Assembly (NCBI GenBank): GCA_022321325.1
Contig: JAKOEO010000012.1
Span: 1 to 61,654, forward strand
Source: Candidatus Magnetominusculus sp. LBB02
GTDB taxonomy: Bacteria; Nitrospirota; Thermodesulfovibrionia; Thermodesulfovibrionales; Magnetobacteriaceae
DNA length: 61,654 nucleotides
Direction of reading: 5' to 3'
The translations under genes and the position numbers were made by a program. Within the stretch, counting starts at the first letter, position 1, and each line of letters begins with the position of its first letter. Below, one piece after another: positions 1-20,895 of this stretch. The notes beneath the pieces are model-generated. The model worked only from the letters and a program-made list of their open reading frames with translations, had not been told where the DNA came from and did not search any database.

Positions 1-98
1 CCAACATGGGCGGCAGCCTCAAGGCGCGCAATGTTGACGGCGGCGCTGAGTTTGTGATAGCTTTGGGTATAAGAGCTGGTGACAATGAAAGCAGATGA
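1..98 (+). CDS. 3' end of a sensor histidine kinase (truncated by window edge)
   Basis: Frame from position 3 reads NMGGSLKARNVDGGAEFVIALGIRAGDNESR*, a typical HATPase C-terminal strand. Confidence 0.75.
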   Translation, partial: NMGGSLKARNVDGGAEFVIALGIRAGDNESR

Positions 99-2280
99 TA
101 AAATAAACAAACTCCTGGATGATTTGCGTAAAGCAAATGAGCAGTGTGACAAAACAAACGAGGAACTGAAAAGAGAGAAATCAGATCGTCAGCGGGCAGA
201 GGCTGAGACTGCGGCACTGTTAAAAGGTACGAGGGCGGTTTTAGAGTTTAACGACTTTGCACAATCAGCAAGAAAAATATTTGATGCGTGTAAGGATATT
301 ATAGGGGCAACTGCCGGATATGTAGCGTTACTGACCCCTGATGGCAGTGAAAACGAAGTGCTTTTTTTGGAGGCGGGGGGACTGCCATGTACTGTGGATC
401 CGAATTTGCCAATGCCGATAAGAGGATTGCGTGAGGTCTCTTATAGAACAGGCAAGGCTGTATATGATAACGATTTTCATAACAGTGCATGGATGGATTT
501 CATGCCTGATGGTCATGTTCGACTTATCAATGTCATGTTTTCACCCCTGATTTTGGACAAAAAGGCGGTTGGTTTAATAGGGTTAGCAAATAAAGCAGGA
601 GATTTTACCGATAGAGATGCCGACTTGGCAATGGCTTTTGGTGAATACGCTGCAATAGCACTGCTGAACAGCAGAGCCAGGGAGTTACTTGAAATCAATG
701 AGAAGAAACTACAATCTATAGTGAATACTGCTGCCGACGCCATAATAACGATAGATACCAATCACCGTATAATATATTGGAACAAAGCATCAGAAACTAT
801 ATTTGGTTACTCTGCATCAGAGGCACTTAACAAAGACATATCGGTAATAATCCCCGAAAGATATAAGCAGAAGCACAAAGAAGGAGTAAAAAGAGTAATC
901 GAAACAGGGCAGTCGAATTTGGTTGGCAAGACATTTGAGATGTCAGGACTAAGGAAAAATGGTGATGAGTTTCCTGTGGAAATATCTCTTGCTATGTGGA
1001 AGGTGAAAAAAGACTACTACTACACAGGTATTATAAGAGATATAACTGGACGTAAGAATGCTGAGGAGCAGATACGCAAGGCAAAAGACAATTTGGAAGT
1101 TTTAGTCCAGGTCCGTACTGACGAACTCTCAAAGGCAGTTGTGGCTCTTCAGGAAAGCGAAGAGAGGTACAGGGGTATTTTCAACTATACACAAACAGCG
1201 ATTTTGATATTCGACCCTGAAACACTGCAAGTAGCAGAGGCAAATGATCGGGCATGTTCTTTTTATGGCTATACGAAGGATGAGTTCTCTCAAAAGAAGA
1301 TATCGGATATACACACTCTCTCAAAAGAACAGCTACGTATCACCATTGAAGATGTAAAACATAATAGAAGAAGTAATATAGTAACCCGGCATCGTCTGTC
1401 TTCAGGGGAAATCAAAGATGTAGAAATATATGCAAGTCCAATTAAGATACAAGGGAAAATGCTTGTTTGTTCAATAGTTCACGATATAACTGAACGCAGG
1501 CGCTTGGAAGAAGAAATAAAGACAATCAATCTTAATTTAAAAGAAAGGGTAGAGGATGAGGTTGCAAAGAACCGCGCAAAGGATCAACTGATGTACGAGC
1601 ATTCCCGGAACATATCAATGGGCGAGTTACTGGTTAATATATCACACCATTGGAGGCAGCCACTTTGTGGGATAGCAGTTTACATTCAGGACATCAAGGA
1701 TGCCTATCGGTATAATGAATTAGATGAGCCATACCTAAATAAAAATATAGCACTCGCCATGTCAGAATTAAAGATGTTATCGGACACTATTGATGCTTTT
1801 AGCAATTTCTATGTCCAGGATAAAGAGCAGCAGGAGTTCTATATCTCATCCGAGATAAACAGGGCAGATACCCTTATCTCAGAGTATGTCAAAGATAAAG
1901 CCATAGTCATTGACAAAGATATGGACAACTCTTTAACGGTTCGGGGATATCCTCACGAGTTTGCCCATGTTATTCTAAGCGTGCTAACCAATGCCAAGGA
2001 CAAATTTGAACAAAAAAATATCACAGGTGGTATGATTAAGATAAGATCATATAATGACGATACCACTGGCAGGAAAATTATCACCATAGCTGATAACGGC
2101 GGCGCTATCCCGGATGAGATAATAAATAAGGTGTTTGATCCATATTTCACTACCAAGGACAAATCACGTGGAACCGGTATGGGGCTGTATATGGCAAAGG
2201 TAATAATTGAGAAGATTATGGGCGGCGCCATATCAATCGGAAATACTGCTGGTTGGTGCGTAGTGAGGATAGAGCTGTGA
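79..2280 (+). CDS. GAF-PAS-PAS sensor histidine kinase
   Basis: GAF, two PAS domains, H-box ISHHWRQP, G boxes DNGGAI/FDPYFTTK/GTGMGL; ATG at 85 is an alternative start. Confidence 0.93.
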   Translation: MTMKADDKINKLLDDLRKANEQCDKTNEELKREKSDRQRAEAETAALLKGTRAVLEFNDFAQSARKIFDACKDIIGATAGYVALLTPDGSENEVLFLEAGGLPCTVDPNLPMPIRGLREVSYRTGKAVYDNDFHNSAWMDFMPDGHVRLINVMFSPLILDKKAVGLIGLANKAGDFTDRDADLAMAFGEYAAIALLNSRARELLEINEKKLQSIVNTAADAIITIDTNHRIIYWNKASETIFGYSASEALNKDISVIIPERYKQKHKEGVKRVIETGQSNLVGKTFEMSGLRKNGDEFPVEISLAMWKVKKDYYYTGIIRDITGRKNAEEQIRKAKDNLEVLVQVRTDELSKAVVALQESEERYRGIFNYTQTAILIFDPETLQVAEANDRACSFYGYTKDEFSQKKISDIHTLSKEQLRITIEDVKHNRRSNIVTRHRLSSGEIKDVEIYASPIKIQGKMLVCSIVHDITERRRLEEEIKTINLNLKERVEDEVAKNRAKDQLMYEHSRNISMGELLVNISHHWRQPLCGIAVYIQDIKDAYRYNELDEPYLNKNIALAMSELKMLSDTIDAFSNFYVQDKEQQEFYISSEINRADTLISEYVKDKAIVIDKDMDNSLTVRGYPHEFAHVILSVLTNAKDKFEQKNITGGMIKIRSYNDDTTGRKIITIADNGGAIPDEIINKVFDPYFTTKDKSRGTGMGLYMAKVIIEKIMGGAISIGNTAGWCVVRIEL

Positions 2281-2373
2281 AGGATGAGCTGCAATAGTTA
2301 CAACTTAATCGGATAAGCTGGTACAATAACTCCATTATAAAGAACATGGGTTTTCTGGCGTGGTGGAGACAGA

Positions 2374-2459
2374 CCAACATGGGCGGCAGCCTTGAGGCGC
2401 GCAATGTTGACGGCGGAGCGGAGTTTATTATTACATTAGGCGCTGCCGGTATTTGCTGA
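2374..2459 (+). pseudogene. Orphan histidine kinase 3' fragment; direct repeat of 1-53
   Basis: 2374-2426 matches 1-53 at 49/53 nt; reads NMGGSLEARNVDGGAEFIITLGAAGIC*. Confidence 0.75.
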
Positions 2460-2516
2460 AATTATAGAATTTTATTGCGGACAATGCCGTTTCTATGATA
2501 ATATTGTGCCAGTGCT

Positions 2517-2960
2517 ATGGAAAGAGTAAATGGCAAAGAAGATGAGCTTCAGGGCGCTATTACCGAAAACCGCTTTCTGAAAGAGACTATTGACGCAATG
2601 CGCAAGCAGCTTGAGTTCATGCAATTTGACAAAGAGGACGCTGTCAGAAAGGCAGCCGTGGCAGCCAACGCCGAACTCTCGCAGCTTCAGGCCACTATCG
2701 TAGAGCTAAGAAAAGAACTCCAGCGCTGCGGCCTTGAAAAGGACGAGGCTGTTCAGAAGACCGCCGCCTCGATGGCTGACGAGGTAAAGCAGATTAAGGC
2801 AGTGGCCGCCGCCCTTCGCCGCGAGATGGAGACCATGCGGTTTGCCTTCGATAAACGCCTCGATGATGAGCGCGCCTCACATCGCAGCGAAATTGGGCAG
2901 TTACAGAAAACCATACAGGCGCTTAGACAGAGTTTAGAGGATAAGGCGGTACATAAGTGA
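2517..2960 (+). CDS. Coiled-coil repeat protein coupled to the cyclase
   Basis: Helical protein with about three ~36-aa repeats (EKDEAV.K...E..Q....LR); stop overlaps the next start. Confidence 0.8.
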   Translation: MERVNGKEDELQGAITENRFLKETIDAMRKQLEFMQFDKEDAVRKAAVAANAELSQLQATIVELRKELQRCGLEKDEAVQKTAASMADEVKQIKAVAAALRREMETMRFAFDKRLDDERASHRSEIGQLQKTIQALRQSLEDKAVHK

Positions 2961-5254
2961 CAAAGAAGTCAGACAACTCATCCAATGCCCAGGACTCTGT
3001 TCAGAGTAAGCTCCATGAGCTTGAAAGCAGTGTCCGGCAGGCCGAGATGCTGCTTAGCATATCGCATAAACTTGCCGCTATAGACTCGCTCGATGAGATT
3101 TTAGAGGTGTTTGTCAACATGGCCATCTCAGAGCTTACAGCAGAGCGCGGCTCTATTTTCCTCAATGACGCAAGTACGGGCGAGTTATATTCCATCGTGG
3201 CCCAGGGCGGGTTTAAGCGCCAGCTTAGATTTCTCAACACAAGCGGCATCGCGGGCGACGTCTTTAAAATGGCCAAAGGCGTCATCGTCAACGATGTCTA
3301 CAAGGACAAGCGCTTTAATCGCGAAATTGATCAGCAGACCGGCTATAAGACCAGAACGATGGTGTGCGTTCCCATAGTGACGGGCAAGGCCGAGGTGCTT
3401 GGCGTCGTGCAGATTCTCAATAAGAAACAGGGGAAGTTCTCCCCCGACGACATGAACCTGCTTCAGGCAATGACAACGCAGGCGGCAATAGTGCTTCAAA
3501 CCGCTCAGTTTGTCGAGCAGATGCAAATCTCGCGCGCCCAGGAGCTGGAGTTTCTTGACATCGTAGCAGACATCACATCGGAGATTGAGCTTAGCACGCT
3601 TTTGCAGAAGGTGATGAGCGAGGCCACGAAGATGCTCCATGCCGAGCGCTCTACGCTTTTTATTAATGACGAGAAGACCAACGAGCTGTGGTCAATGGTA
3701 GGCGAGGGCATTGACGCCACCCAGATACGCTTCCCCAATCATTTGGGCATAGCTGGGGCGGTATTTACAAGCGGCAAGTCTGTAAACATCCCATACGCAT
3801 ATGCGGATTTGCGTTTTAATCCGGCGTTTGATTATAAGACAGGATTTTTCACGCGCTCCATACTCTGTACCCCCGTAGTAAACAAGCAGGGCAAGATAAT
3901 AGGCGTAACGCAGGTGCTGAATAAGCGCGGCGGCCCGTTTACCGATGAGGATGAGTCGCGGCTGAAGGCATTCACCGCCCAGATTTCCATTGCCCTTGAA
4001 AATGCCAAACTATTTAATGACATTCAGAATATGAAAAACTATAACGAAAGCATGCTCCAAAGTATGAGTAACGGCGTCATAACGCTCGATGAGGAAGGAA
4101 AGATAATCACATGTAACGCCTCTGGGCAGCGCATATTAAAGACCAACATTCAGGAGATAATAGGCAAAGAGACGGGCAGTTTCTTCTCGGGGCAGAATGC
4201 GTGGATTCTTGATAAGATAAGGCAGGTAGAACTAAGCCGAAGCGCTGAGATAACAATGGATGCCGTGCTGATATTTAACAGGGAGAGCGTCTCGGCCAAC
4301 GTAACGGTGCTGCCTTTGGTAAGCGGCGAGGGCAAGAAACTTGGAAACATGATAATACTTGAGGACATCTCCGGCGAAAAGCGTATGAAATCCACGATGT
4401 CGCGCTACATGGACCCGGCCCTGGCAGACCAGCTCCTGGCCGGTGGAGATGACATACTTGGCGGCAAGAGCACTGTTGCTACGGTGCTGTTTTCAGACAT
4501 TCGAGGCTTCACCACATTTACCGAGGAACTTGGGGCGCACGGCACAGTGAGCCTGCTAAATGAGTATTTCACGCTGATGATGGAGTGTATTCAGGCCGAG
4601 GGCGGTATGTTGGATAAGTTCATTGGAGATGCCATAATGGCGGGCTTTGGGGTGCCTATCCCGTATGAAGATAATGAGGACAGGGCGGTGCGCTCCGCTA
4701 TAGCGATGCTCAAGTCCCTGTCACAGTGGAATGTCAAACGCGCTGCTGACAAGAAAAAACCAGTAGACATAGGCATCGGCCTAAACACAGACACCGTGGT
4801 CTCAGGTAATATCGGCTCGCCAAAGCGCATGGATTTTACGATGATAGGCGACGGCGTCAACCTGGCCTCAAGGCTTGAGTCGGCGTGTAAGCAGTATGGC
4901 GCCAGGATTCTCATCTCTGAAAACACATACCACAAACTGCGCGGCATATATCAGGTCAGAGACATTGACGATGTCATAGTAAAGGGAAAGACGAAGGCCG
5001 TGAGGATATACGAAGTCCTTGATTACTATACAGAGGAGACATTCCCCTGTCTGATGGAGGTAGCGGGCTATTTCAAAGAGGGGCGCAAGTTTTATCAGTC
5101 AGGGGACTGGGAGCGCGCGGCAAAGGCATTTAAAGAATCGCTGAAGCTGCACTCAGGCGACAAGCTCTCGCAGATGTATATAGAGCGTTGCGAACACTTA
5201 AAGGCCGCCCCGCCCGCCGAATGGGATGGCGTGTGGAAGATGACCTCGAAATAG
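2957..5254 (+). CDS. Class III adenylate cyclase, GAF-GAF-PAS-CYC with TPR-like tail (CyaB-like)
   Basis: VLFSDIRGFT, LDKFIGDAIM, DFTMIGDGVNLASRLE; two GAFs with NK..F..D motifs. Confidence 0.93.
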   Translation: MTKKSDNSSNAQDSVQSKLHELESSVRQAEMLLSISHKLAAIDSLDEILEVFVNMAISELTAERGSIFLNDASTGELYSIVAQGGFKRQLRFLNTSGIAGDVFKMAKGVIVNDVYKDKRFNREIDQQTGYKTRTMVCVPIVTGKAEVLGVVQILNKKQGKFSPDDMNLLQAMTTQAAIVLQTAQFVEQMQISRAQELEFLDIVADITSEIELSTLLQKVMSEATKMLHAERSTLFINDEKTNELWSMVGEGIDATQIRFPNHLGIAGAVFTSGKSVNIPYAYADLRFNPAFDYKTGFFTRSILCTPVVNKQGKIIGVTQVLNKRGGPFTDEDESRLKAFTAQISIALENAKLFNDIQNMKNYNESMLQSMSNGVITLDEEGKIITCNASGQRILKTNIQEIIGKETGSFFSGQNAWILDKIRQVELSRSAEITMDAVLIFNRESVSANVTVLPLVSGEGKKLGNMIILEDISGEKRMKSTMSRYMDPALADQLLAGGDDILGGKSTVATVLFSDIRGFTTFTEELGAHGTVSLLNEYFTLMMECIQAEGGMLDKFIGDAIMAGFGVPIPYEDNEDRAVRSAIAMLKSLSQWNVKRAADKKKPVDIGIGLNTDTVVSGNIGSPKRMDFTMIGDGVNLASRLESACKQYGARILISENTYHKLRGIYQVRDIDDVIVKGKTKAVRIYEVLDYYTEETFPCLMEVAGYFKEGRKFYQSGDWERAAKAFKESLKLHSGDKLSQMYIERCEHLKAAPPAEWDGVWKMTSK

Positions 5255-9381: not shown

Positions 9382-9457
9382 GCGGCCACTTCCGGCTTTA
9401 AAATAATTTATTGATTTTGATTTGCACAAAATTGTATTATCAGCCGGAGGGTGCGTT

Positions 9458-10213
9458 ATGAAAACGGCAAAAATCATTGCAATAACCAATCAAAAAGGCG
9501 GAGTTGGCAAGACTACCACGGCGGTTAACCTTACCGCGGGGCTAATCAAAAATGGCTATAAGACCCTGCTTATTGACCTTGATTCTCAGGGAAACGCCTC
9601 GGCCTCTCTGGGGTTAATCATCGAAGATGCCACAAGGACAGTTAAAGACCTGCTTCTGCACCAAAAAGGCCCGCGTGATTTTATTGCTAAGGCCGATACG
9701 ATAGAGCTAATCCCGTCTAATAATTCACTGAAAGACATAGAAGACACGCTGCTTAGCGACAAGAAATTCGATACGCTTAAACATTCCATAGCGCCGCTTG
9801 CAAACGACTACGACTATATCATCATAGACTGTCCGCCAAGCATAAACGTGTTTACGAAAAATGCGCTGAGGGCGGCAAATGAGATAATTGTCCCTGTAGA
9901 TGTTGGGTATTTCTCGCTTCTGGGCATTAAGCAGCTGCTTGAGGAGATAGAGCATTTCAAAAAGGAGTTAAACCCGCGGCTGACGATACGCGGCGTCCTT
10001 GCCTGCAAATATGACAGACGCACATCGCTGTCAGCGCAGATTTATGAGGCGCTCAGGCAGAGTTTTCCAGATAAATTATTTAAAACCCATATTCGCCTGA
10101 GCATAGACATTGTGCGCGCTCAAATCGCCCAAAAGGACATTTACAGTTATAATCGCAGGGCTGCCGCCGCAGAGGACTACAATGCCCTGACTGAGGAGAT
10201 AATCAATGGCTAA
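9458..10213 (+). CDS. ParA/Soj-family ATPase (orphan)
   Basis: NQKGGVGKTT, IDLDSQGNA, IIIDCPPS; ATG 9458 follows GGAGG. Confidence 0.92.
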   Translation: MKTAKIIAITNQKGGVGKTTTAVNLTAGLIKNGYKTLLIDLDSQGNASASLGLIIEDATRTVKDLLLHQKGPRDFIAKADTIELIPSNNSLKDIEDTLLSDKKFDTLKHSIAPLANDYDYIIIDCPPSINVFTKNALRAANEIIVPVDVGYFSLLGIKQLLEEIEHFKKELNPRLTIRGVLACKYDRRTSLSAQIYEALRQSFPDKLFKTHIRLSIDIVRAQIAQKDIYSYNRRAAAAEDYNALTEEIING

Positions 10214-10715
10214 TAAAAAGCAGATAATGGACAAGTTGAGCGCCCTGAATCTTGCCACACCGACAAAGACGCGCACCCATGAGGCCGCTGCCCCGGCAGG
10301 GTCTCAAACGCCTGAACCACCTCAAAAAGCCAAAACACACAGAGCGGCAGTTGTAGAGGCAAAACAGGCTAAGCCCTCGCCGCCTGCCCCGCCTGATTCT
10401 GGCGGCAGGATAGAGACCGGCGATTTTACATTGTTTGTAGACAGCGCCGGGCAGACTATGGCAGTTGCCGAGATTAATCAGCCCATTTTCAGCGGCCCTT
10501 CAGGGGTATGCACATTTACGCTGTTTGTTGATAACATCACAGCCCTTATGAAGATAAGCGAAGAGTTTCAAAATAATCTCCTCAGTATTAACTCGATGAT
10601 GATTGACAGCTACAGGAGGACATTGACAATAACATTTGACACAATGATACACACCTATGGACAGTTCGTTGAGAGTTTGAAGGATATGATACCATCGGCT
10701 CTCAAACAAAGATAG
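10206..10715 (+). CDS. Hypothetical ParA partner protein
   Basis: Overlaps the ParA stop; basic N-terminus, Pro/Ala linker, amphipathic helical C-terminus. Confidence 0.75.
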   Translation: MANKKQIMDKLSALNLATPTKTRTHEAAAPAGSQTPEPPQKAKTHRAAVVEAKQAKPSPPAPPDSGGRIETGDFTLFVDSAGQTMAVAEINQPIFSGPSGVCTFTLFVDNITALMKISEEFQNNLLSINSMMIDSYRRTLTITFDTMIHTYGQFVESLKDMIPSALKQR

Positions 10716-10731
10716 AGAATGTTATAAGCGT

Positions 10732-11124
10732 AGGAGCAGGCCATGCGGCCGCCCCTGTTGACGGTATACACGCCGCCTATAGGGGAGGAAAGTCCGAGCT
10801 CCGCATGGGCAGGACGGCTGCTAACGGCAGCCGGGGGCGACCCCAGGGAAAGTGCAACAGAAATTATACCGCCGCGCGCCGCACAGCGCGTGGTAAGGGT
10901 GAAATGGTGAGGTAAGAGCTCACCGCCTCCTGCGGCAACGTGGAAGGCAGGTAAACCCCGTCCGGAGAAAGGTTGAATATGTCCCGCTTTTCGGGCTGCC
11001 CGCCCGATACCTTGCGCGTAGAGCGCTGGGAGGCGGGACGGGTACTAACCGCATAAGGCGGCAAGCAATTGTCGTCTCAGATGAATGGCCGCGCAACACA
11101 GAACTCGGCTTACGGCCTGCTCTT
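10732..11124 (+). ncRNA. rnpB: RNase P RNA (bacterial type A)
   Basis: GAGGAAAGTCCGAGC, GAAAGTGCAACAG, AGGGTGAAATGGTGAGGTAAGAGC, ACAGAACTCGGCTTA; P1 GGAGCAGGCC/GGCCTGCTCT. Confidence 0.96.
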
Positions 11125-11185
11125 ATTTATTTTATTTACTGGGGGCGTCAATCTTGGGAGCGCCTGCCGCCAACCATTTGTCTCT

Positions 11186-11515
11186 TTATTTAATTATGGC
11201 CAGACCATCGAGGATTTTTTCAGTTTTAGACATATCGCCTATGAAATGCACAACTGGCAGGGGGTTTTGTTTTACCAGCATCGGCGTTGCTAAAACACCT
11301 TGCCGCCGCGCAAGTGACGGCCTGTTATATATATCTATTATCTCAAGGTCATAATGTCCTTCGATATACCGCTCGCAAATCTTCTTTATATTCTCTATCG
11401 CACGCATTGACAGAAGCGTCTGGCCTGTCACATAGAGCTTCAGGATAATGGCGCTTTTATCAGACTTATCAATAGAATTACCGCTCATCCTGTCTTTTCC
11501 TCGCTCCATGGTCAC
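11186..11515 (-). CDS. kaiB: KaiB-family protein (second copy, divergent)
   Basis: LKLYVTGQT..S.RAI..NI..IC, IIDIY..P.LA, ATP.L.K..P.P, IGDMS; true start may be ATG 11488. Confidence 0.88.
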   Translation of the reverse strand: MTMERGKDRMSGNSIDKSDKSAIILKLYVTGQTLLSMRAIENIKKICERYIEGHYDLEIIDIYNRPSLARRQGVLATPMLVKQNPLPVVHFIGDMSKTEKILDGLAIIK

Positions 11516-11578
11516 ACTGTTTTAGAACGGCCGCTGATAGCATAACCGGAATTGATATCTACCCTGCTAAACAGGGTA

Positions 11579-13264
11579 TTAAGGAACTCTCTTCTTTGAA
11601 ATATCGAAGCTAATCCTGGCGTTGATGTCTGTCCTTAGTCTTTCCTGTGACAATATTAAATCAATCTCAGCCTGGTCATTGGCAATGGCAGCCTGCAATG
11701 CCTCTATGCGAACCTCGGCCTCTTTTCGTTTTGATTCTAATTCACGCAGCCTGCGCTCAACCTCTTGTTTCATAGCAAAGTCCTCTGCCCTGTCTTTTGC
11801 CTCCTGCACGATGCGGGCAGTCCCTGTAAGAACCATGCCTGCACCGGTGTATGCCTCAAGGAGCTGCACTCCATTACTGGCAATAATGAACTCGCTTATC
11901 TGGTTTGAATGAGACATTCCCCTTGACTTTATAACATACAGCCCTCTTGTACGCTCTCCGTTATATTCTATCGTCTTCAGCACTATCCATGTGTCCATCA
12001 GCGATGAGATTCCTACGTCCGTATTGTCAATGTATTCACTTGATGTGGTAAGAGTGGTAAAAAGCGATGTGATATCGCGGGATTTCATCAGGTCAACAAG
12101 CCGCATCATCAGTGTCTTTACCTCATCTGAACCTCCAATATCACTATAATTCGTAATCGGGTCCAATATGCACACAGAGGGATTGAATTCGTTAATCAGT
12201 TTGTGGATTGTAACAAGATGGGTCTCTATGCCGAAGGAAGTCGGCCTGGCCGCGTTGAACCTGAGAAGACCCTGTTCAATAAAAGGCGCCAGATCAATGC
12301 CTATAGACCTGCCGTTTCTGATTATCTGATGCTGTGATTCCTCTGACGCTATATAGAGACAGCGCTGCCCTCGTTCGCATGTCGCTTTAGCAAGGTGTAC
12401 GGCTAAGCTTGTCTTTCCTGTGCCTGCCGTGCCGGATACCAATATCGAACTGCCCACGTAATAGCCCTTGCCGTCCATCATTGCGTCGAGATGGGCGATG
12501 CCGGTTGAAATATGCTCGGTCAAGGCCTTATGCTCAAGGCCCAATGATGTTATTGGCAGTACAGATATGCCGGTTGTATCTATAAGAAAGGGATACTCAT
12601 TTGCGCCGTGGGCAGAGCCGCGATACTTGACAACACGCAGGCGGCGGGTGGTACGCTGCCCTTCTACCCTGTGGTCAAGCAGAACTACGCAATCGGCGAC
12701 ATACTCTTCTATCCCGTGGCGGGTCAGTGCGCCGTCGCCTCTTTCTGCGGTGATGACGGCTGTTATTTCATTTTCCTTTATCCATCTGAACAGCCTTCTT
12801 AACTCCGCCCTTAGAATGTGGTGGTCTTGCATGCCGGCAAATAACGTCTCGATGGTATCGAGGACTAGTCTCTTTGCACCGATCGACTTCATTGCGTGCT
12901 CAAGCCTGACAAACAGACCTTCAAGGTCATAGTCTCCCGTTACTGTAAAATCGTCGCGGTCTATATAGATATGATCTAGCAAAATCTTTTTCATTTTTAT
13001 CATGCCGGAAATATCAAAACCAAGAGATTCAACGTTCATAATCAGGTCTTTTTCCGACTCGTCAAAAGAGATAAACACACCCGGCTCATCATATTCATTA
13101 GCGCCATGAACAAGGAACTCCATTGCCAGAAGGGTCTTGCCACACCCTGCATTTCCGCATACTAAAGTTGGACGCCCCTTTGGCAGCCCGCCGGTAATCT
13201 CGTCAAGCCCATGAATCCCTGTTAAACACTTCTGCAATTTATTGTTGATAATTTTCTTGCTCAT
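11579..13264 (-). CDS. kaiC: KaiC-family double ATPase, SS-type with C-terminal coiled coil (KaiC2-like)
   Basis: Two P-loops (GNAGCGKT, GTAGTGKT), EEYVADCV, GISSLMDTW, KSRG, ~70-aa coiled-coil tail. Confidence 0.92.
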   Translation of the reverse strand: MSKKIINNKLQKCLTGIHGLDEITGGLPKGRPTLVCGNAGCGKTLLAMEFLVHGANEYDEPGVFISFDESEKDLIMNVESLGFDISGMIKMKKILLDHIYIDRDDFTVTGDYDLEGLFVRLEHAMKSIGAKRLVLDTIETLFAGMQDHHILRAELRRLFRWIKENEITAVITAERGDGALTRHGIEEYVADCVVLLDHRVEGQRTTRRLRVVKYRGSAHGANEYPFLIDTTGISVLPITSLGLEHKALTEHISTGIAHLDAMMDGKGYYVGSSILVSGTAGTGKTSLAVHLAKATCERGQRCLYIASEESQHQIIRNGRSIGIDLAPFIEQGLLRFNAARPTSFGIETHLVTIHKLINEFNPSVCILDPITNYSDIGGSDEVKTLMMRLVDLMKSRDITSLFTTLTTSSEYIDNTDVGISSLMDTWIVLKTIEYNGERTRGLYVIKSRGMSHSNQISEFIIASNGVQLLEAYTGAGMVLTGTARIVQEAKDRAEDFAMKQEVERRLRELESKRKEAEVRIEALQAAIANDQAEIDLILSQERLRTDINARISFDISKKRVP

Positions 13265-13296
13265 CCCGATACCTCCACGGCTTATCTGACATGACC

Positions 13297-14892
13297 TCAG
13301 TCCTCAACAATCAGCGATTCCTGTTCGTCAACCTTTGGCAGTATGATGGTAAACTCTGCTCCCTTGCCTGTGTTATTGGCATATAGCCTGCCGCCCATGC
13401 TGGTCTCTATTATAGTTTTCGACATGTAGAGGCCAATGCCGGTGCCCTTGCTTCCTTTGGTAGTAACGTATGGGTCGAATAGCGTATTGAGTATGTCGGC
13501 GGGAATGCCTCCGGCGTTATCTTTAATCACAACAGCAATATTGTCATCGTTCTTTATCGTATAAATCTCTATCAAGCCAAATTTGCCACGAAGAGCGCCC
13601 TTTGACTTTGCTGTAAGGATTGCGTCCTTGGCGTTTACTATGATATTTAACAGCACCTGCTTAATTTCGTTGGGGTAACCGACGATATATAGGAATCCAA
13701 ATTCGCAGCCCTTGAGACTCTTGCAGTCCTCTAAGTCAATTTCATGCGTAGCGCACTTGCAGGCGTGCTTAATGTGAATTTGCATGTTTTTCATCTCAGC
13801 GCACAGGATAGACAGCACAGAGTTGATTATCATATTTACGTCAATTCGTATCTTTCTTTTGGTCGGCTTAAAGAAGTCGCTGAAATCGGTGATGGTATCA
13901 GACATATAGTTAATGAGATTCATTCCGGAGTTGACCGCCTCGTCAATATATTGCGTGTCTATTTGATTGAACTGATGTGCGTCCTGCAAGTCTTGGATAA
14001 TCAGGCCGAGGCTGTTAAGGGGCTGCCTCCACTGGTGGGCGATAGAGCCTATCATCTCGCCAAGGGCTGCCATCTTGGACTTTTGAATCAACATGTCCTC
14101 CTGAAGCTGGCACTTGTGAACCTCTTCCATTACCCTTCGCTCCAGATTTATATTCAGGTCGGTAATTTTGGCGATTAACTTTTTCCTCTCCGTTACATCT
14201 CTCAGAGAGGCCAGAATATGCGCCTCCCCTTCCCATTCTATATCCACAACTCGCAGTTCAACCGAAACTGCCACACCGTCCGCCCCTATGATTTCTATCT
14301 CGGTTTTGTCGGCGTTTATAACGGGCATGCCAAGATACTCGCCTACTAAATGGCCTGATTGCTTGCCAAATAGGAGCTCGGCGGCGGGATTTGCAAAACG
14401 AATCCACCCCTCAATATCAAGTATCAATATACCGTCGGCGTTTTTCTCTATCATATGGTAGAAACGCGACTCGCTTGACTGCTTCAGCGCCAAAATCAAA
14501 CGGTTGCGCTCGATGGCATATTGAATAGAGCGGCATAGCGCCGTGCCGGTAATCTCGCTCTTGGCGATATAGTCCTGCGCCCCGCACCTTGCCGCCATCA
14601 TTGTTGAATCCGAATCTTCCTCGTCAGATATGCCCAGCACCGGAATGTCCCCCGCCATCTTCTTAAAGCTTGTCAGGATATCGCAGCCATAAGGCTCTGA
14701 CAGCTCAATGCTTATCAAAAGCACATCAATTGGATGAGGCGGATTAGAAAGATAACCAGGCAGCATTGAGACATCTTCTATGCTGTCTATGGCAAAATCC
14801 ACATGTGGGACCTCAGCGAGGATACCGCTGATATATTGGACATCCTCGCTGCTATCCCCTACAAACAGACATCTTATCATCCTTTCAGCCAT
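13297..14892 (-). CDS. Pseudo-receiver-PAS histidine kinase within the kai operon
   Basis: REC-like N-terminus with Ser where the phospho-Asp is expected (IDVLLIS), PAS, IAHQWRQPLN, HATPase. Confidence 0.9.
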   Translation of the reverse strand: MAERMIRCLFVGDSSEDVQYISGILAEVPHVDFAIDSIEDVSMLPGYLSNPPHPIDVLLISIELSEPYGCDILTSFKKMAGDIPVLGISDEEDSDSTMMAARCGAQDYIAKSEITGTALCRSIQYAIERNRLILALKQSSESRFYHMIEKNADGILILDIEGWIRFANPAAELLFGKQSGHLVGEYLGMPVINADKTEIEIIGADGVAVSVELRVVDIEWEGEAHILASLRDVTERKKLIAKITDLNINLERRVMEEVHKCQLQEDMLIQKSKMAALGEMIGSIAHQWRQPLNSLGLIIQDLQDAHQFNQIDTQYIDEAVNSGMNLINYMSDTITDFSDFFKPTKRKIRIDVNMIINSVLSILCAEMKNMQIHIKHACKCATHEIDLEDCKSLKGCEFGFLYIVGYPNEIKQVLLNIIVNAKDAILTAKSKGALRGKFGLIEIYTIKNDDNIAVVIKDNAGGIPADILNTLFDPYVTTKGSKGTGIGLYMSKTIIETSMGGRLYANNTGKGAEFTIILPKVDEQESLIVED

Positions 14893-14901
14893 ATAGAGTC
14901 A

Positions 14902-16422
14902 TCACCTGTCTTTAAACAACTCATCTGTACGATATACCTCGGCAGAGGAAATCTGTACAGGATTGCCGGAGAGTATTCCCACCACGTTTCTAAATGGTTT
15001 GCCTATGTGCATCCCTGTGCCGTCAATCTGGAACTCGCGAATCTCCTTGTCGTGCGTGGAGCCGCGCATCTTTAAAACCGTGATGCCGCGCCTGGTCTCG
15101 CCGAAGATTTCGACATAACGCAACAGTATAATCGTATCTGTAATTGTGGAGATATGAGTCTCGGTGATGGACGTACCGCCTAAGAGAGTCGGCGTTGTCG
15201 AGGTGAAAAATCCCGCAATTTCCTTATGTTTAATAAACGATGTAATGCTTATCACAAACTCCCTGAAACTCCTTATTGTTGATACCCTCTCCAGCGCCGA
15301 GAGGCTGTCAACAGCGATTCTGTTAGGTTTATATGCGTCTATCGTCTTTTTCATCTTAATAAGATGGTCTTCAAGCGAGGCGGTCTCAGGGTATTCGCAT
15401 ACTACCATTAACCGTCCTTCGTTTTCCATCTTTTCGTAGTCAACCCCCCAGCCTATGGCGTTTCTGAAAAGCTGTTCACGGCTTTCCTCAAAGGCAAATA
15501 TCAGGCATCTCTCGTTATCGGCAGCGCCGCCGGCGATGAAGTGTGTAACCATAAGGGTCTTGCCGTTTCCAGTTGCGCCGGAGACAAGGATTATGGAATC
15601 CCTATAAAAACCTCCCGCACACATGTTGTCAAGCTCAGTGCAGCCTGAGGTGATTCTCACAACCGAGGACTTCTGTTTAAGCTCTATGGCAGAGAGCGGG
15701 ATGATAATTATCCCCTCCCCCGGTATAATAGTAAAGGGAAATTCGCCCTTATAATGGTCAGTGCCGCGAAACTTCAATATCTCGATAGTGCGGCGTCTTC
15801 TTTCGTCCTCAAGGGAGTTTCTCAATATAACTACATTGTCGGCGACAAACTCCTCAACGTCAAATCTGGCAATGCTGCCCTTTTCGTCAATGCGCTCTGC
15901 CGTTATAATGCTGGTAACGTTCATTTTTCTAAGGGCATGGGTTATGCGGAATATCTCGCGCCTGACTGTGGCCCTGTCTGAAAACTGGCTGAAAAACGCG
16001 CCAAGCGAATCAAACGATACCCTTGTAGCCCCGACTTTTTTAACCGCGTGTTCTATGCGCGCCAAAAGGCCGCCCATATCATATGCGCCGGCCTCCACCA
16101 CTTCTGTCTCAGGCTGAGGAGAGGCGTCTATAAATACCCACATGCCGTCGGCCTCAAACTGCTTAATATCCCAGCCGAAGCTGATCATATTTTTTCTTAT
16201 CTCATCGGGGGATTCCTCAAATGTGACAAATAGACCCGTTTCTTTATTATTCCTTATGCCTTCAACCAAAAACTGCGTGGCAAAAACGGTCTTCGAACTT
16301 CCCGCCGTACCGGAAAGAAGCGTTGAGCGGTGCTTAGGAAACCCGCCCTTTGCTATCCAGTCAAAACCCGGCACATGCGTCGGCAGCTTTTCCAGACCTT
16401 TATTGTTATTATTCACATCCAT
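14902..16422 (-). CDS. kaiC: KaiC circadian ATPase/kinase, ST-type (KaiC1/KaiC3-like)
   Basis: GTAGSSKT, VEEFVADNV, GATGNGKT, HISTITDTIILLRYVE, KMRGSTHDKEIREF, A-loop-like ILSGNPVQI. Confidence 0.95.
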   Translation of the reverse strand: MDVNNNNKGLEKLPTHVPGFDWIAKGGFPKHRSTLLSGTAGSSKTVFATQFLVEGIRNNKETGLFVTFEESPDEIRKNMISFGWDIKQFEADGMWVFIDASPQPETEVVEAGAYDMGGLLARIEHAVKKVGATRVSFDSLGAFFSQFSDRATVRREIFRITHALRKMNVTSIITAERIDEKGSIARFDVEEFVADNVVILRNSLEDERRRRTIEILKFRGTDHYKGEFPFTIIPGEGIIIIPLSAIELKQKSSVVRITSGCTELDNMCAGGFYRDSIILVSGATGNGKTLMVTHFIAGGAADNERCLIFAFEESREQLFRNAIGWGVDYEKMENEGRLMVVCEYPETASLEDHLIKMKKTIDAYKPNRIAVDSLSALERVSTIRSFREFVISITSFIKHKEIAGFFTSTTPTLLGGTSITETHISTITDTIILLRYVEIFGETRRGITVLKMRGSTHDKEIREFQIDGTGMHIGKPFRNVVGILSGNPVQISSAEVYRTDELFKDR

Positions 16423-16727
16423 TAGGCATCCCCTCCTTCATCTTTCTTTCTCATACACGGTTGTAAATCAAGACCCACAAGGACTTTGTCTGTATCAGAG
16501 AGGTCGCCTATTACGCGCCTGATAGGAAGCGGCAGCACCTTTATCAATGTCGGCGTGGCGAGGATCTTTTCGTCCTCCGCTAGCTGCGGTCTTTCAAGGA
16601 TGTCTATTACAACCATCTCATATTGACTTTGAAGTTCATGTGTGCATATATTTTGCAGGTTGGCAATAGCCCGTTCCGACTTGGGCGTCTTACCGGTTAT
16701 GTAGAGTTTTAACAAATAATTGTTCAT
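16422..16727 (-). CDS. kaiB: KaiB protein
   Basis: [50 protein letters not shown]. Confidence 0.95.
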
Positions 16728-16751
16728 TAAGGACCTCCCTATTTACTTATA

Positions 16752-17621
16752 TCAATTTTTTCTGAATACGATGAAATAATTTAGATAGTATGTGACAAGA
16801 TTCCCCATCAGCTCCAACACTATAAAGCGTCCCTCTTCCAGGTATAGCTGCGCCTTCGCCATATTGACCTCGTTGAGTTTCAACTTGAGCGACTCGGAAT
16901 GAATCTCAACCACATCCCTTGGGCCGGACTTGAGAAAGCCAAGCTGTTCTGACAAGGAAAGCAGGTCGTCCTGTATCTGATTTTCAGTCTTATATATTCT
17001 TTGTTCTACGGCGGCGTCAAGAATCTCACAATACTTAGTTACGAAATTGTTGAATGTCTCCACACTGCTTTCGCGCAGAGACGACTTGCCCAACATTTGA
17101 GATGTAATCGCCGACCTTGAACTTCCAGAAAGACGCTCTAAAGACTTTAACTCCAAGCTGTGGCCGTGTTCATATTGGATTTTAAGCATATCCATGCGCA
17201 ATCTGTTTCGTTCTATGGCATAGAGCAGAGACCGCAGCAATGAATGCCCATCAAAAGTCCCCTTGGCAAGACAATCCTGAGCGCCCATAGATACTGCCGT
17301 TTGTGCAACGAAATCATCGTCTTCGGCTTTTGAAAGTATGACAATAGGTTTTTCGGGTATCAGGAATTGGACAATAGAGTATGTATTGAGAAGTTCGCTG
17401 TCAGGCAGCATCAAATCAAGGAGCACTATATCTACGCTGCATTGCGATAATTTAAGAGAAGCCTGCGAGAAACTGTCCGCGTGGTCAACTTTGATATTAA
17501 CGCTTGCCTTCTCGGCAAGAAGCGCCTCTATGCGGGCTGCCTCTTTTGCGTCAGCCTCAATTATAAGAAGATTTATGGTCTTTTCCTGTTCTTGTTCCAA
17601 GCCAACCCCTGATGAAGCCAA
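16752..17621 (-). CDS. Receiver domain fused to a KaiA-like C-terminal domain (KaiA3-like)
   Basis: REC with VLLD..S..K; C-terminal LGFLKSGPRDVVEIH..EEGRFIVLELMGNLVTYY resembles the KaiA C-domain (VVEIH..EGR..L..Y); first gene of the kaiB-kaiC operon. Confidence 0.8.
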   Translation of the reverse strand: MASSGVGLEQEQEKTINLLIIEADAKEAARIEALLAEKASVNIKVDHADSFSQASLKLSQCSVDIVLLDLMLPDSELLNTYSIVQFLIPEKPIVILSKAEDDDFVAQTAVSMGAQDCLAKGTFDGHSLLRSLLYAIERNRLRMDMLKIQYEHGHSLELKSLERLSGSSRSAITSQMLGKSSLRESSVETFNNFVTKYCEILDAAVEQRIYKTENQIQDDLLSLSEQLGFLKSGPRDVVEIHSESLKLKLNEVNMAKAQLYLEEGRFIVLELMGNLVTYYLNYFIVFRKN

Positions 17622-17634
17622 TTACTGAAGACTA

Positions 17635-17664
17635 ATTATAATATAAGTCGCCGATAAATGTCAA
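17635..17664 (-). promoter_or_regulatory. sigma70 promoter of the kai operon
   Basis: Minus strand TTGACA(17664-17659)-18bp-TATAAT(17640-17635). Confidence 0.8.
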
Positions 17665-19609: not shown

Positions 19610-20143
19610 TTACTGAAGCAACAGGAGTTCTTTAAGACGGCGCAGGGCCTCAATGGCAGCCCCAACGCGCCTGAAGAGTTTGTGGACTATCTCGTTGCGG
19701 CTTATCCTGTTTAACAGCGAGATAAGTTTTATCTTTGTTGCTATGACATACTCTTCGTCCTTTGCAATACTGCAAAAGACCGCCATTGACTGCGGCCCCA
19801 TCTTCAGAAACGCATCCATAAAGTCTTTGTTCTTTTCAGACAGTGATTCAATTGCCCGCAGGCAGTCAAGGCTGATGTTATTTTTAAGCAGGATACTGAG
19901 GCTCTCCCGCATCTGTGGAGTCAGGCTGTCAACTGATGGTTCTATTGGCGTCTCTTTCTTATCAAATTTATCGGAGAGCGCAGCCCATGAGGTATTTTCC
20001 TGGGGCTGCGGCTGCTCTATTTCATTTTTTTCTATTTGCGGCGCTACAGGGGCTGCGGCTGCCTGTCCTTTATTTTTTTTAGATTGGCGCTTTTCGAGGC
20101 GCGAACGCCCCCCTGCCATCAGATTTTTTATTTTATTTGACAA
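19610..20143 (-). CDS. Hypothetical ParA partner protein
   Basis: Overlaps the ParA stop; basic N-terminus, low-complexity linker, helical C-domain. Confidence 0.75.
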   Translation of the reverse strand: MSNKIKNLMAGGRSRLEKRQSKKNKGQAAAAPVAPQIEKNEIEQPQPQENTSWAALSDKFDKKETPIEPSVDSLTPQMRESLSILLKNNISLDCLRAIESLSEKNKDFMDAFLKMGPQSMAVFCSIAKDEEYVIATKIKLISLLNRISRNEIVHKLFRRVGAAIEALRRLKELLLLQ

Positions 20144-20895
20144 CGCGTTGCAACCTCCTTGCCGAACTTGGAGAAATTCTCAGAGGCCAGCTGCCCTCTG
20201 GGAAAGTCGAATACCGAAATCCCGGCTATTTGCGCCTGATTAATGGATTCTCTTTCATATATCTTAGTCTTAAAAATTCTGCTGCGATACTCGTCCAGTT
20301 TATCGTCAATTGCCTCGTTTGTCAGTCGGGCAGATTTTTTGACCCTTGACAGCACTATATTCCAGCGGTCATCGAGTGCGCCCTCTCTGACGTCCTTCAA
20401 TTTAATGATAAAATCCGCAAGCCCGTCTATCGAGCGGCTTGACGGCTCGCATGGTATAAAACAATAATCTGCAACCATCAGCGTGTTTTCTACCAGAGGG
20501 CCTAACGACGGCGGACAGTCAATGATAACCAAGCCATAGGCCTTGTCCCTGTATATCTTCTCCATAGATTTCATAAGACGGCGTTCCCGCTTAAACGAAT
20601 TATACAATGTCTCGTTTACAAGGCTGAGCCTGATATTGGACGGGGCAACGTCAAGTCCCTTTATAGGCGAATTTGTAATAATTGTGGCAATCTCTTCCTG
20701 ATTTGCCAGGACATCCGCTATAGAACGGTCATTATAGCCCACATCTATGCCAAGCCCAGGGGCCACATGCCCTTGCGGGTCCATGTCAACAATCAGCGTC
20801 TTAACCTTTTTCTTTGCAAAATATGTCCCCATATTAATGCAAATTGAGGTCTTGCCGGTGCCGCCCTTATGGTTTGCCAGACAGATAGTTACCAC
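20128..20895 (-). CDS. ParA/Soj-family ATPase (orphan)
   Basis: NHKGGTGKTS, VDMDPQGH, IIDCPPSLG; AAGGAGG RBS. Confidence 0.92.
   Translation of the reverse strand: MVTICLANHKGGTGKTSICINMGTYFAKKKVKTLIVDMDPQGHVAPGLGIDVGYNDRSIADVLANQEEIATIITNSPIKGLDVAPSNIRLSLVNETLYNSFKRERRLMKSMEKIYRDKAYGLVIIDCPPSLGPLVENTLMVADYCFIPCEPSSRSIDGLADFIIKLKDVREGALDDRWNIVLSRVKKSARLTNEAIDDKLDEYRSRIFKTKIYERESINQAQIAGISVFDFPRGQLASENFSKFGKEVATRCQIK

Follow-up and report, generated by a model that had tools for sequence, protein, structure and literature searches.

Do two different sets of Kai clock genes that stand behind a single promoter, in a bacterium that is likely non-phototrophic, work as one timer or as two? The question is raised by Candidatus Magnetominusculus sp. 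LBB02 (Nitrospirota; Magnetobacteriaceae), in whose contig JAKOEO010000012.1 a stretch of 61,654 nucleotides (the window) contains six consecutive minus-strand open reading frames (ORFs), kaiA3, kaiB3, kaiC3, a hybrid histidine kinase gene, kaiC2, and kaiB' (Table 1). This confirmed the order given by the initial annotation, a gene for a receiver domain (REC) joined to a KaiA-like protein, followed by kaiB, kaiC, a kinase, kaiC, and kaiB. We give somewhat better than even credence to two modules lying side by side, a KaiA3B3C3 timer inherited in the family and an appended KaiC2 module tied to the energy state of the cell. By analogy with known systems, slow timing by phosphorylation is the likely role of the first set, and the second likely senses the ATP/ADP ratio on its own, independently of KaiA. 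Throughout, G000 is the host genome, and the other G, L, and P labels designate the genomes, loci, and proteins of relatives that were compared with it.

Identity of the six genes

The description of the first gene as KaiA-like was borne out, and sequence and model evidence together identify it as KaiA3. Its N-terminal receiver matched PF00072 (40.9 bits, cut-off 30.2) and takes a (beta/alpha)5 form in the model. The C-terminal domain is identical to that of Synechocystis KaiA3 (Sll0485) at 42 of 107 positions without gaps, as counted by eye in supplement 4 of PMC11372060. When the model of this domain (predicted local distance difference test, pLDDT, 91) was examined in VIA, KaiA chains ranked 1, 2, and 4 of 48161, with Z values of 10.8, 10.6, and 10.3, root-mean-square deviations (rmsd) of 2.4, 3.6, and 2.2, and 90, 105, and 96 positions aligned; the chain at rank 1 was Anabaena KaiA (1r5q). 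Foldseek also placed a KaiA chain (1q6a) at rank 1. A family paralogue from G014 (L033:2521-3357), which aligns end to end with the family profile, passed the Pfam KaiA cut-off (24.7 vs. 22.2). As for synteny, of 123 metagenome kaiA3 loci found, 80 were kept, near-duplicates included; kaiA3 was directly followed by kaiB in 64 of the 66 with room for it, and an ST-type kaiC (kaiC3) was present in 27 of 29.

Several results weigh against this assignment. The Foldseek E-values were 0.085 or weaker, the VIA Z values of 10-11 lie under the caution level of about 13 for helical bundles, and a stressosome sensor domain (3zta; Z 10.6, rmsd 2.8, 108 aligned) shares the top of this model-based fold ranking with the KaiA chains. 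The window KaiA3 gave no match to Pfam KaiA, and only six of the 81 family members do so, weakly, versus nine that match RsbU_N. Direct sequence searches of PDB and Pfam with the C-domain returned no KaiA match, and receiver domains took up the results both of a PDB profile search and of Foldseek when the whole protein was modelled. RsbU-N was not among the 50 VIA matches listed for the C-domain model.

The receiver of KaiA3 keeps D69, S97, and K120, with L77 in place of a Gly and A23 in place of an Asp that is present in 78 of the 81 family rows. A23 is common to P0002, and the position is otherwise altered only in P0010. From CheY chemistry, we take the near-invariant Asp to be Mg-binding. 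A phosphorylatable receiver is a feature of the majority of published KaiA3 proteins, though not of all. The hybrid kinase, whose orthologues follow kaiC3 across the family, keeps H286 and has Ser61 at the phospho-Asp position of its own receiver; by their residues, both receivers look degenerate. This decay was seen in the window and in the named record L002, that is, in the genus that acquired KaiC2, and not in the other genera aligned. In other genomes, the KaiA3 C-domain was also found fused to protoglobin, PAS, MASE3-PAS, and REC-PAS-PAS sensors (P0095, P0081, P0096, P0097, L149:6090-8060, L150:6426-7892, and L087:7725-9428), of which the protoglobin fusion is a possible oxygen input. In L004:9453-10360 and L155:7625-8532, kaiA3 is split by a frameshift, either real or an assembly error.

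Both KaiB proteins passed PF07689 and both KaiCs passed NF006799. KaiB3 keeps the equivalents of K57, G88, and D90, residues tied to the fold switching of KaiB (PMC5520375). The phosphosite motifs on which two KaiC types had been proposed were present, HISTIT from residue 423 of the first KaiC and GISSLMD from residue 418 of the second. KaiC3 is a double-domain protein with S425/T426, both P-loops, both EE pairs, the R-linker, and a short tail with the invariant R498 and F503, and it alone of the two passed TIGR02655 (625, cut-off 546). Its best solved match was a reconstructed ancestor, KaiC-beta, with 703 bits, compared with 581 for cyanobacterial KaiC1. In a tree of 46 KaiC sequences, which held no cyanobacterial reference, KaiC3 fell outside the KaiC2 clade; because Synechocystis KaiC3 is outside this tree, the KaiC3 (group III) label rests on motifs, synteny, and clade. 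The two window KaiCs are only 33% identical and belong to separate deep clades, which confirmed the two types and ruled out a recent duplication of kaiC inside the operon. This duplication was one of the refuting conditions named in the initial annotation; another, a C-domain that does not adopt the KaiA helical bundle, was likewise not borne out by the fold model.

A model of the KaiA3 C-domain dimer with the last 35 residues of KaiC3, a check suggested in the initial annotation, scored 0.68, versus 0.01 for the best of three controls, a result that concerns predicted binding only. Of 157 solved complexes, 116 attained the score mark, as did two of 215 mismatched pairs; these counts apply only approximately to this model. 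The runs agreed in at least 62% of contacts, and the pLDDT of the partner was 51-62. In the model, residues 495-503 of KaiC3 lie in a groove of the dimer lined by P234, R235, H241, and R265, and the contacts pair conserved KaiA3 columns (these four and G273) with conserved residues of the tail (E495, R498, and F503). The KaiA3 C-domain is predicted, then, to bind the tail of the adjacent KaiC3, although the pass may reflect memory, because a KaiA-KaiC peptide complex has already been solved (5C5E).

KaiC2, with S420/S421, scored 619 bits to 8DBA, and its alignment with Rhodobacter KaiC spanned residues 12-541, which takes in most of the tail. It clades with the KaiC of Cereibacter (Rhodobacter) sphaeroides (support 0.96) and has DE instead of EE in CI. 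By its SS sites, its tail extension of about 50 residues, and its clade, it classifies as a Rhodobacter-type (group IV) KaiC. The proposal of a Rhodobacter-type hourglass KaiBC, made from the SS motif and the coiled-coil tail, held for the type of KaiC2 but not for KaiB, since the neighbouring kaiB belongs to a second paralogue that has diverged. G004 carries kinase-kaiC2-kaiB-kaiB' in this order, with the first kaiB intact; in the KaiB tree, this first kaiB joined C. sphaeroides KaiB (0.985), and window kaiB' fell with the second kaiB of G004 and that of G008 (0.96). Identity to C. sphaeroides KaiB was 38% for window kaiB', versus 55-57% for the first kaiB of G004 and the kaiB of another host contig, C109. 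Between kaiC2 and kaiB', G008 and G005 retain a relic of the first kaiB that bears an internal deletion (none of 300 shuffles reached the score), and no relic was detected in the 63 bp between these genes in the window. Judging from such comparisons, the Rhodobacter-type kaiB was deleted from this position.

KaiB' lacks the equivalents of K57 and D90, and its gene evolves fastest of the six, with a ratio of nonsynonymous to synonymous substitution rates (dN/dS) of 0.28-0.41, a sign of relaxed selection. It points to a second class of KaiB in kaiC2 operons, for which no close solved structure was found. The window kaiC2, on the other hand, is intact, with dN/dS of 0.10-0.12 and 79-81% conservation, versus 70% for PheT between the same genomes.

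Promoter, spacing, and surroundings

The single upstream promoter of the initial annotation was also recovered. It is the sole 12/12 site among 18 promoter-like sites (the shuffle mean was 12.2 sites), and G008 has a homologous TTGACA-18-TACTAT (10/12) at the equivalent position. Given its location, TTG 17600 is the likelier start of kaiA3 (282 aa, as in P0001). The gaps along the six genes are, in order, 24, -1, 9, 32, and 63 bp, a spacing that makes co-transcription plausible. Another promoter-like site (10/12, 13436-13409), upstream of kaiC2, was rejected as a sign of separate transcription because it lies inside the G2-box codons of the kinase and is near-identical in the G008 kinase, which has no kaiC2 behind it. 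No terminator was found 3' of kaiB' (z -0.13). Among sequencing runs, none of RNA was listed, and a single DNA run, whose pieces were short and left the junctions unbridged, was not used. Compared with G008, all six genes are under purifying selection, with dN/dS of 0.06-0.14 except for kaiB' (0.41).

The cluster is flanked by cinA and by a convergent RNase P RNA gene. Synonymous distance to G008 was 0.7-0.9 for kaiA3, kaiB3, kaiC3, and the kinase receiver, while pheT and the remainder of the kinase stood at 1.6-2.0; the lower distance over 14500-17621 could reflect a more recent exchange of this block, or codon bias. Two ParA-family ATPase genes, at 9422-10715 and 19610-20895, flank the cluster region, and behind each of them comes a small ORF that matched nothing in Pfam; of these ATPase-ORF pairs, the one adjacent to pheT was not seen beside that gene in those loci of relatives that were examined. 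The stretch 79-5254, some 6 kb away from the cluster, encodes a GAF-PAS histidine kinase along with a GAF-GAF-PAS adenylate/guanylate cyclase.

Table 1. Features of the kai cluster and its borders (positions in the window)
Feature	Position	Strand	Remark
Sigma-70 consensus promoter, TTGACA-18-TATAAT	17635..17664	-	12/12 match; predicted from sequence
kaiA3 (receiver domain, helical linker, KaiA-like C-domain)	16752..17621	-	
KaiA-like four-helix C-domain of KaiA3	16752..17108	-	model pLDDT 91
kaiB3	16422..16727	-	PF07689
kaiC3	14902..16422	-	S425/T426
Hybrid histidine kinase, REC-PAS-HisKA-HATPase	13297..14892	-	REC looks degenerate
kaiC2	11579..13264	-	S420/S421, coiled-coil-type tail
63-bp gap at site where relatives hold Rhodobacter-type kaiB	11516..11578	-	
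kaiB' (second-paralogue KaiB)	11186..11515	-	likely start ATG 11488
RNase P RNA gene rnpB, convergent, bounds cluster	10733..11127	+	277.6 bits

Host and history of the gene run

The nearest named protein is that of Ca. Magnetominusculus xianensis (81%), and those next in line belong to other Nitrospirota. The host genome (3.47 Mb, 91.6% complete) encodes two magnetochrome domains that exceed the cut-off, and 21 of the 22 family genomes have a match. Neither a type I or II reaction centre nor a phytochrome PHY domain was found in this 91.6% complete genome, while positive controls matched. This agrees with the earlier proposal of a probably non-phototrophic host, which is likely a magnetotactic sediment bacterium. 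Its Kai complement comprises one kaiA3, three kaiC, and three kaiB; a KaiA1B1C1 system was not found. Contig C109 carries the third pair, which consists of a tail-less KaiC2 and a Rhodobacter-type kaiB, accompanied by a PAS kinase (L001:7337-10653); together with kaiC2-kaiB' of the window, it looks like the outcome of reciprocal loss from a duplicated kaiC2-kaiB-kaiB' operon. The C109 cluster is also present in G003, and beside the C109 kaiC is a 531-aa ORF (L001:10831-12426), by eye a RuBisCO-like protein fused to a cupin domain.

Within the family, 11 of the 22 genomes have a KaiC match and eight, from four genera, have kaiA3B3C3. Close orthologues of KaiC2 were limited to four of the nine genomes of a single genus, and in two of them (G004 and G005) they contain stop codons, which come from draft assemblies and may be errors. 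The full six-gene run is rare: it was found in one of these nine genomes (G000) and partly seen in one more, G004, where the DNA at the kinase/kaiC2 junction is 76% alike over 2999 bp. In G008 the break between the halves, which are on different contigs, falls at that junction; L002, which has the same first half, was not counted separately. G001, G016, G017, and G018 keep kaiA3B3C3, and no close KaiC2 orthologue was found in them; kaiA3 was not found with the window query in G002-G005 and G007. None of the 80 metagenome kaiA3 loci, 29 of which extend far enough, showed a KaiC2, and no KaiC3+KaiC2 tandem was found around KaiC3 in 12 other Nitrospirota genomes. Because the phylum search scored at most three candidates per genome, the tandem test rests on individual loci, of which those of G009 and G018 end 2-4 kb past the kinase or kaiC3.

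Other arrangements of kaiA3 were also observed. Contig C74 of G014 (L031-L033) holds three kaiA3-like/kaiB/kaiC(ST) sets in about 35 kb. Every set includes a KaiA3-like gene, and one of these genes, from a divergent clade, is that passing the Pfam KaiA cut-off; doubled sets also occur in L050, L063, and L093. Orphan kaiA3-like genes, without kaiB or kaiC in the locus, are present at L145:9772-10701, L146:9222-10121, L147:6981-7514, and L148:2384-3169 (G011, G015, and G009), and no KaiC match was found in G011 and G015.

A single-gene PheT tree, with its root on an odd long branch, was dropped for a four-gene tree, which left out eight of the 22 family genomes. In the latter, G000 branches apart from the group holding G004 (support 97/93). 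Since the junction is shared with this non-sister genome, it is probably ancestral to the genus, unless moved laterally, and the tandem is probably old in the genus yet dispensable. The history would then be that kaiA3B3C3-kinase was ancestral in the family, and that a kaiC2-kaiB-kaiB' operon was added behind the kinase early in the genus, after which lineages split, eroded, or lost it all. Under such a history, the shared promoter more likely reflects how the genes were inherited than a need to couple them. Several points count against this account: the G004 contig, from a 75% complete genome, begins inside the kinase, its upstream genes being unassembled; several nodes inside the genus are weakly supported (36-65% bootstrap); an appearance of ancestry could also arise from lateral exchange; and survival of the tandem in G000, if ancestral to the genus, could mean selection for coupling.

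Proposed working and comparison with known systems

In the favored reading of two separate modules, the KaiA3 dimer would grip the C-terminal tail of KaiC3 and drive autophosphorylation at S425/T426, by analogy with the Synechocystis set. Fold-switching KaiB3 would bind the CI ring and oppose KaiA3, giving a slow cycle, probably a damped one, with the adjacent kinase as its likely reader. With the pocket Asp of the KaiA3 receiver and the phospho-Asp of the kinase both lost, signals more probably enter by allostery than by phosphotransfer. KaiC2, as a dodecamer linked through its tails, would become phosphorylated at S420/S421 without KaiA and follow the ATP/ADP ratio; as the Rhodobacter-type KaiB is deleted at the window, it would use KaiB' or the Rhodobacter-type KaiB of C109.

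The closest counterpart of the first half is KaiA3-KaiB3-KaiC3 of Synechocystis sp. PCC 6803 (PMC11372060), with which it shares the receiver and KaiA-like domain, the order kaiA3-kaiB3-kaiC3, the ST sites, and the short KaiC tail. The window differs in the receiver, which lacks a pocket Asp, and in the hybrid kinase and kaiC2-kaiB' that follow on the same strand. KaiA3B3C3 outside cyanobacteria has been published for five genera, and Nitrospirota are absent from the orthologue table of Koebler et al. (2024, PMC11372060). In one in vitro study, the cycle of the Synechocystis set was damped, temperature-compensated, and roughly 24 h long; in another, two cyanobacterial KaiA3B3C3 sets were self-sustained, and group IV (KaiC2-type) sets were 0% rhythmic. 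Set against a cycling first half, a group III KaiC from R. rubrum did not oscillate, although it was tested only with foreign Synechococcus KaiA. With Synechococcus elongatus KaiABC, the window shares the KaiA C-domain fold, the predicted tail binding, the ST sites, and the fold-switch KaiB motifs, while the C-domain is 11-18% identical, Pfam KaiA is unmatched, and the KaiC is of group III. The window receiver has possibly drifted in parallel to a pseudo-receiver, as in S. elongatus KaiA.

For the second half, the reference is C. sphaeroides KaiBC (Pitsawong et al. 2023, PMC10076222; 8DBA, 8FWJ). The window KaiC2 is 50% identical overall to its KaiC and has in common with it the SS sites, the extended A-loop region, and a long helical tail, which in the window is shorter and 22% identical over 51 residues. 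The kinase is upstream of kaiC2 in the window and downstream in C. sphaeroides, and the host differs further in that a search for reaction-centre genes found none. Autophosphorylation in Rhodobacter is driven by the exposed A-loop rather than by the coiled coil, which speeds dephosphorylation. The same group of organisms was covered by Zhao et al. (2023, PMC10278575), who reported several kaiC copies of different clades in magnetotactic Nitrospirota, including Ca. Magnetominusculus xianensis. The available text files these copies as 'kaiBC-based' and does not describe a KaiC3+KaiC2 operon, and its supplement lists the gene before kaiB as a REC domain only, with kaiA unnamed.

Alternative readings and significance

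That the two halves are coupled, an amended form of the initial annotation's idea, seems doubtful to us. The KaiC2 module would read energy or redox state and entrain or gate KaiA3B3C3, through KaiB cross-binding or the shared kinase, so that the cell could anticipate the daily movement of the oxic-anoxic interface; the loss of both receiver phospho-pockets would mean that kinase input was replaced by KaiC2 input. The single consensus promoter with gaps of at most 63 bp, two intact halves under purifying selection, the junction common to G004, and the receiver decay in the KaiC2-acquiring genus are consistent with it, as are the two interlocked Kai systems of Synechocystis (PMC11372060). However, Synechocystis KaiA3 showed no interaction with KaiC2, and the distribution argues the other way: the halves are separated in G008 at just this junction, four genomes keep kaiA3B3C3 with no close KaiC2 orthologue found, KaiC2 has stop codons in G004 and G005, and the 29 informative metagenome loci and 12 other KaiC3-bearing Nitrospirota genomes showed no tandem. 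Those stop codons, the relaxed selection on kaiB', and the deletion of Rhodobacter-type kaiB in G000, G005, and G008 would also suit a kaiC2-kaiB' half that is a decaying passenger, leaving only KaiA3B3C3 of importance. We find this very unlikely, as the window kaiC2 is intact, constrained, and more conserved than PheT, and the stops may be assembly errors.

It is likewise rather unlikely, in our view, that the locus is not a clock at all. The KaiA3 helical domain would then be an output module that links diverse sensors to a KaiBC ATPase switch controlling histidine kinases, in stress or redox signaling on time scales unrelated to 24 h. The fusion of the same C-domain to PAS, MASE3-PAS, and protoglobin sensors, the three tandem sets of G014, the orphan kaiA3 genes of G009, G011, and G015, and the patchy occurrence of the module among two-component genes (KaiC match in 11 of 22 family genomes) all fit such a switch, as do the arrhythmic group IV sets and a host in which no phytochrome domain was found. 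Yet both KaiA3B3C3 sets assayed with their own KaiA3 cycled, the clock motifs of KaiC3 and KaiB3 are intact, and KaiC3 was closer to the reconstructed ancestor KaiC-beta (703 bits) than to KaiC1 (581).

Within the literature searched, the following appear to be new: KaiA3 in magnetotactic bacteria, a single promoter ahead of a KaiC3+KaiC2 run, a Rhodobacter-type kaiB lost from its place, and degeneration of the two receivers. This search, which covered papers outside subscription, found no report of the tandem or of KaiA3 in magnetotactic bacteria; the kaiA survey of Dvornyk and Mei could list Nitrospirota, as could the supplementary tree of PMC12081879.

The most far-reaching version of coupling, which we hold to be improbable, is that a light-blind magnetotactic cell runs a two-tier daily timer from one promoter, the pseudo-receiver KaiA3B3C3 being entrained by the KaiC2 dodecamer via KaiB' so as to anticipate oxic-anoxic shifts. 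If true, KaiC2 would report ATP/ADP through a KaiB paralogue of an uncharacterised class, and the hourglass and oscillator branches of Kai evolution would be physically linked. In the available parts of the literature examined, no self-sustained Kai oscillator has been reported in a non-phototroph. From a single cell, the operon supplies a KaiA3B3C3 set that is complete and native, together with a KaiC2 set, all soluble and easily expressed, and makes KaiA3 oscillation outside cyanobacteria and cross-talk between hourglass and oscillator testable in vitro. For the family, the presence of kaiA3B3C3 in eight of 22 genomes would correct the classification of magnetotactic Nitrospirota as 'kaiBC only'.

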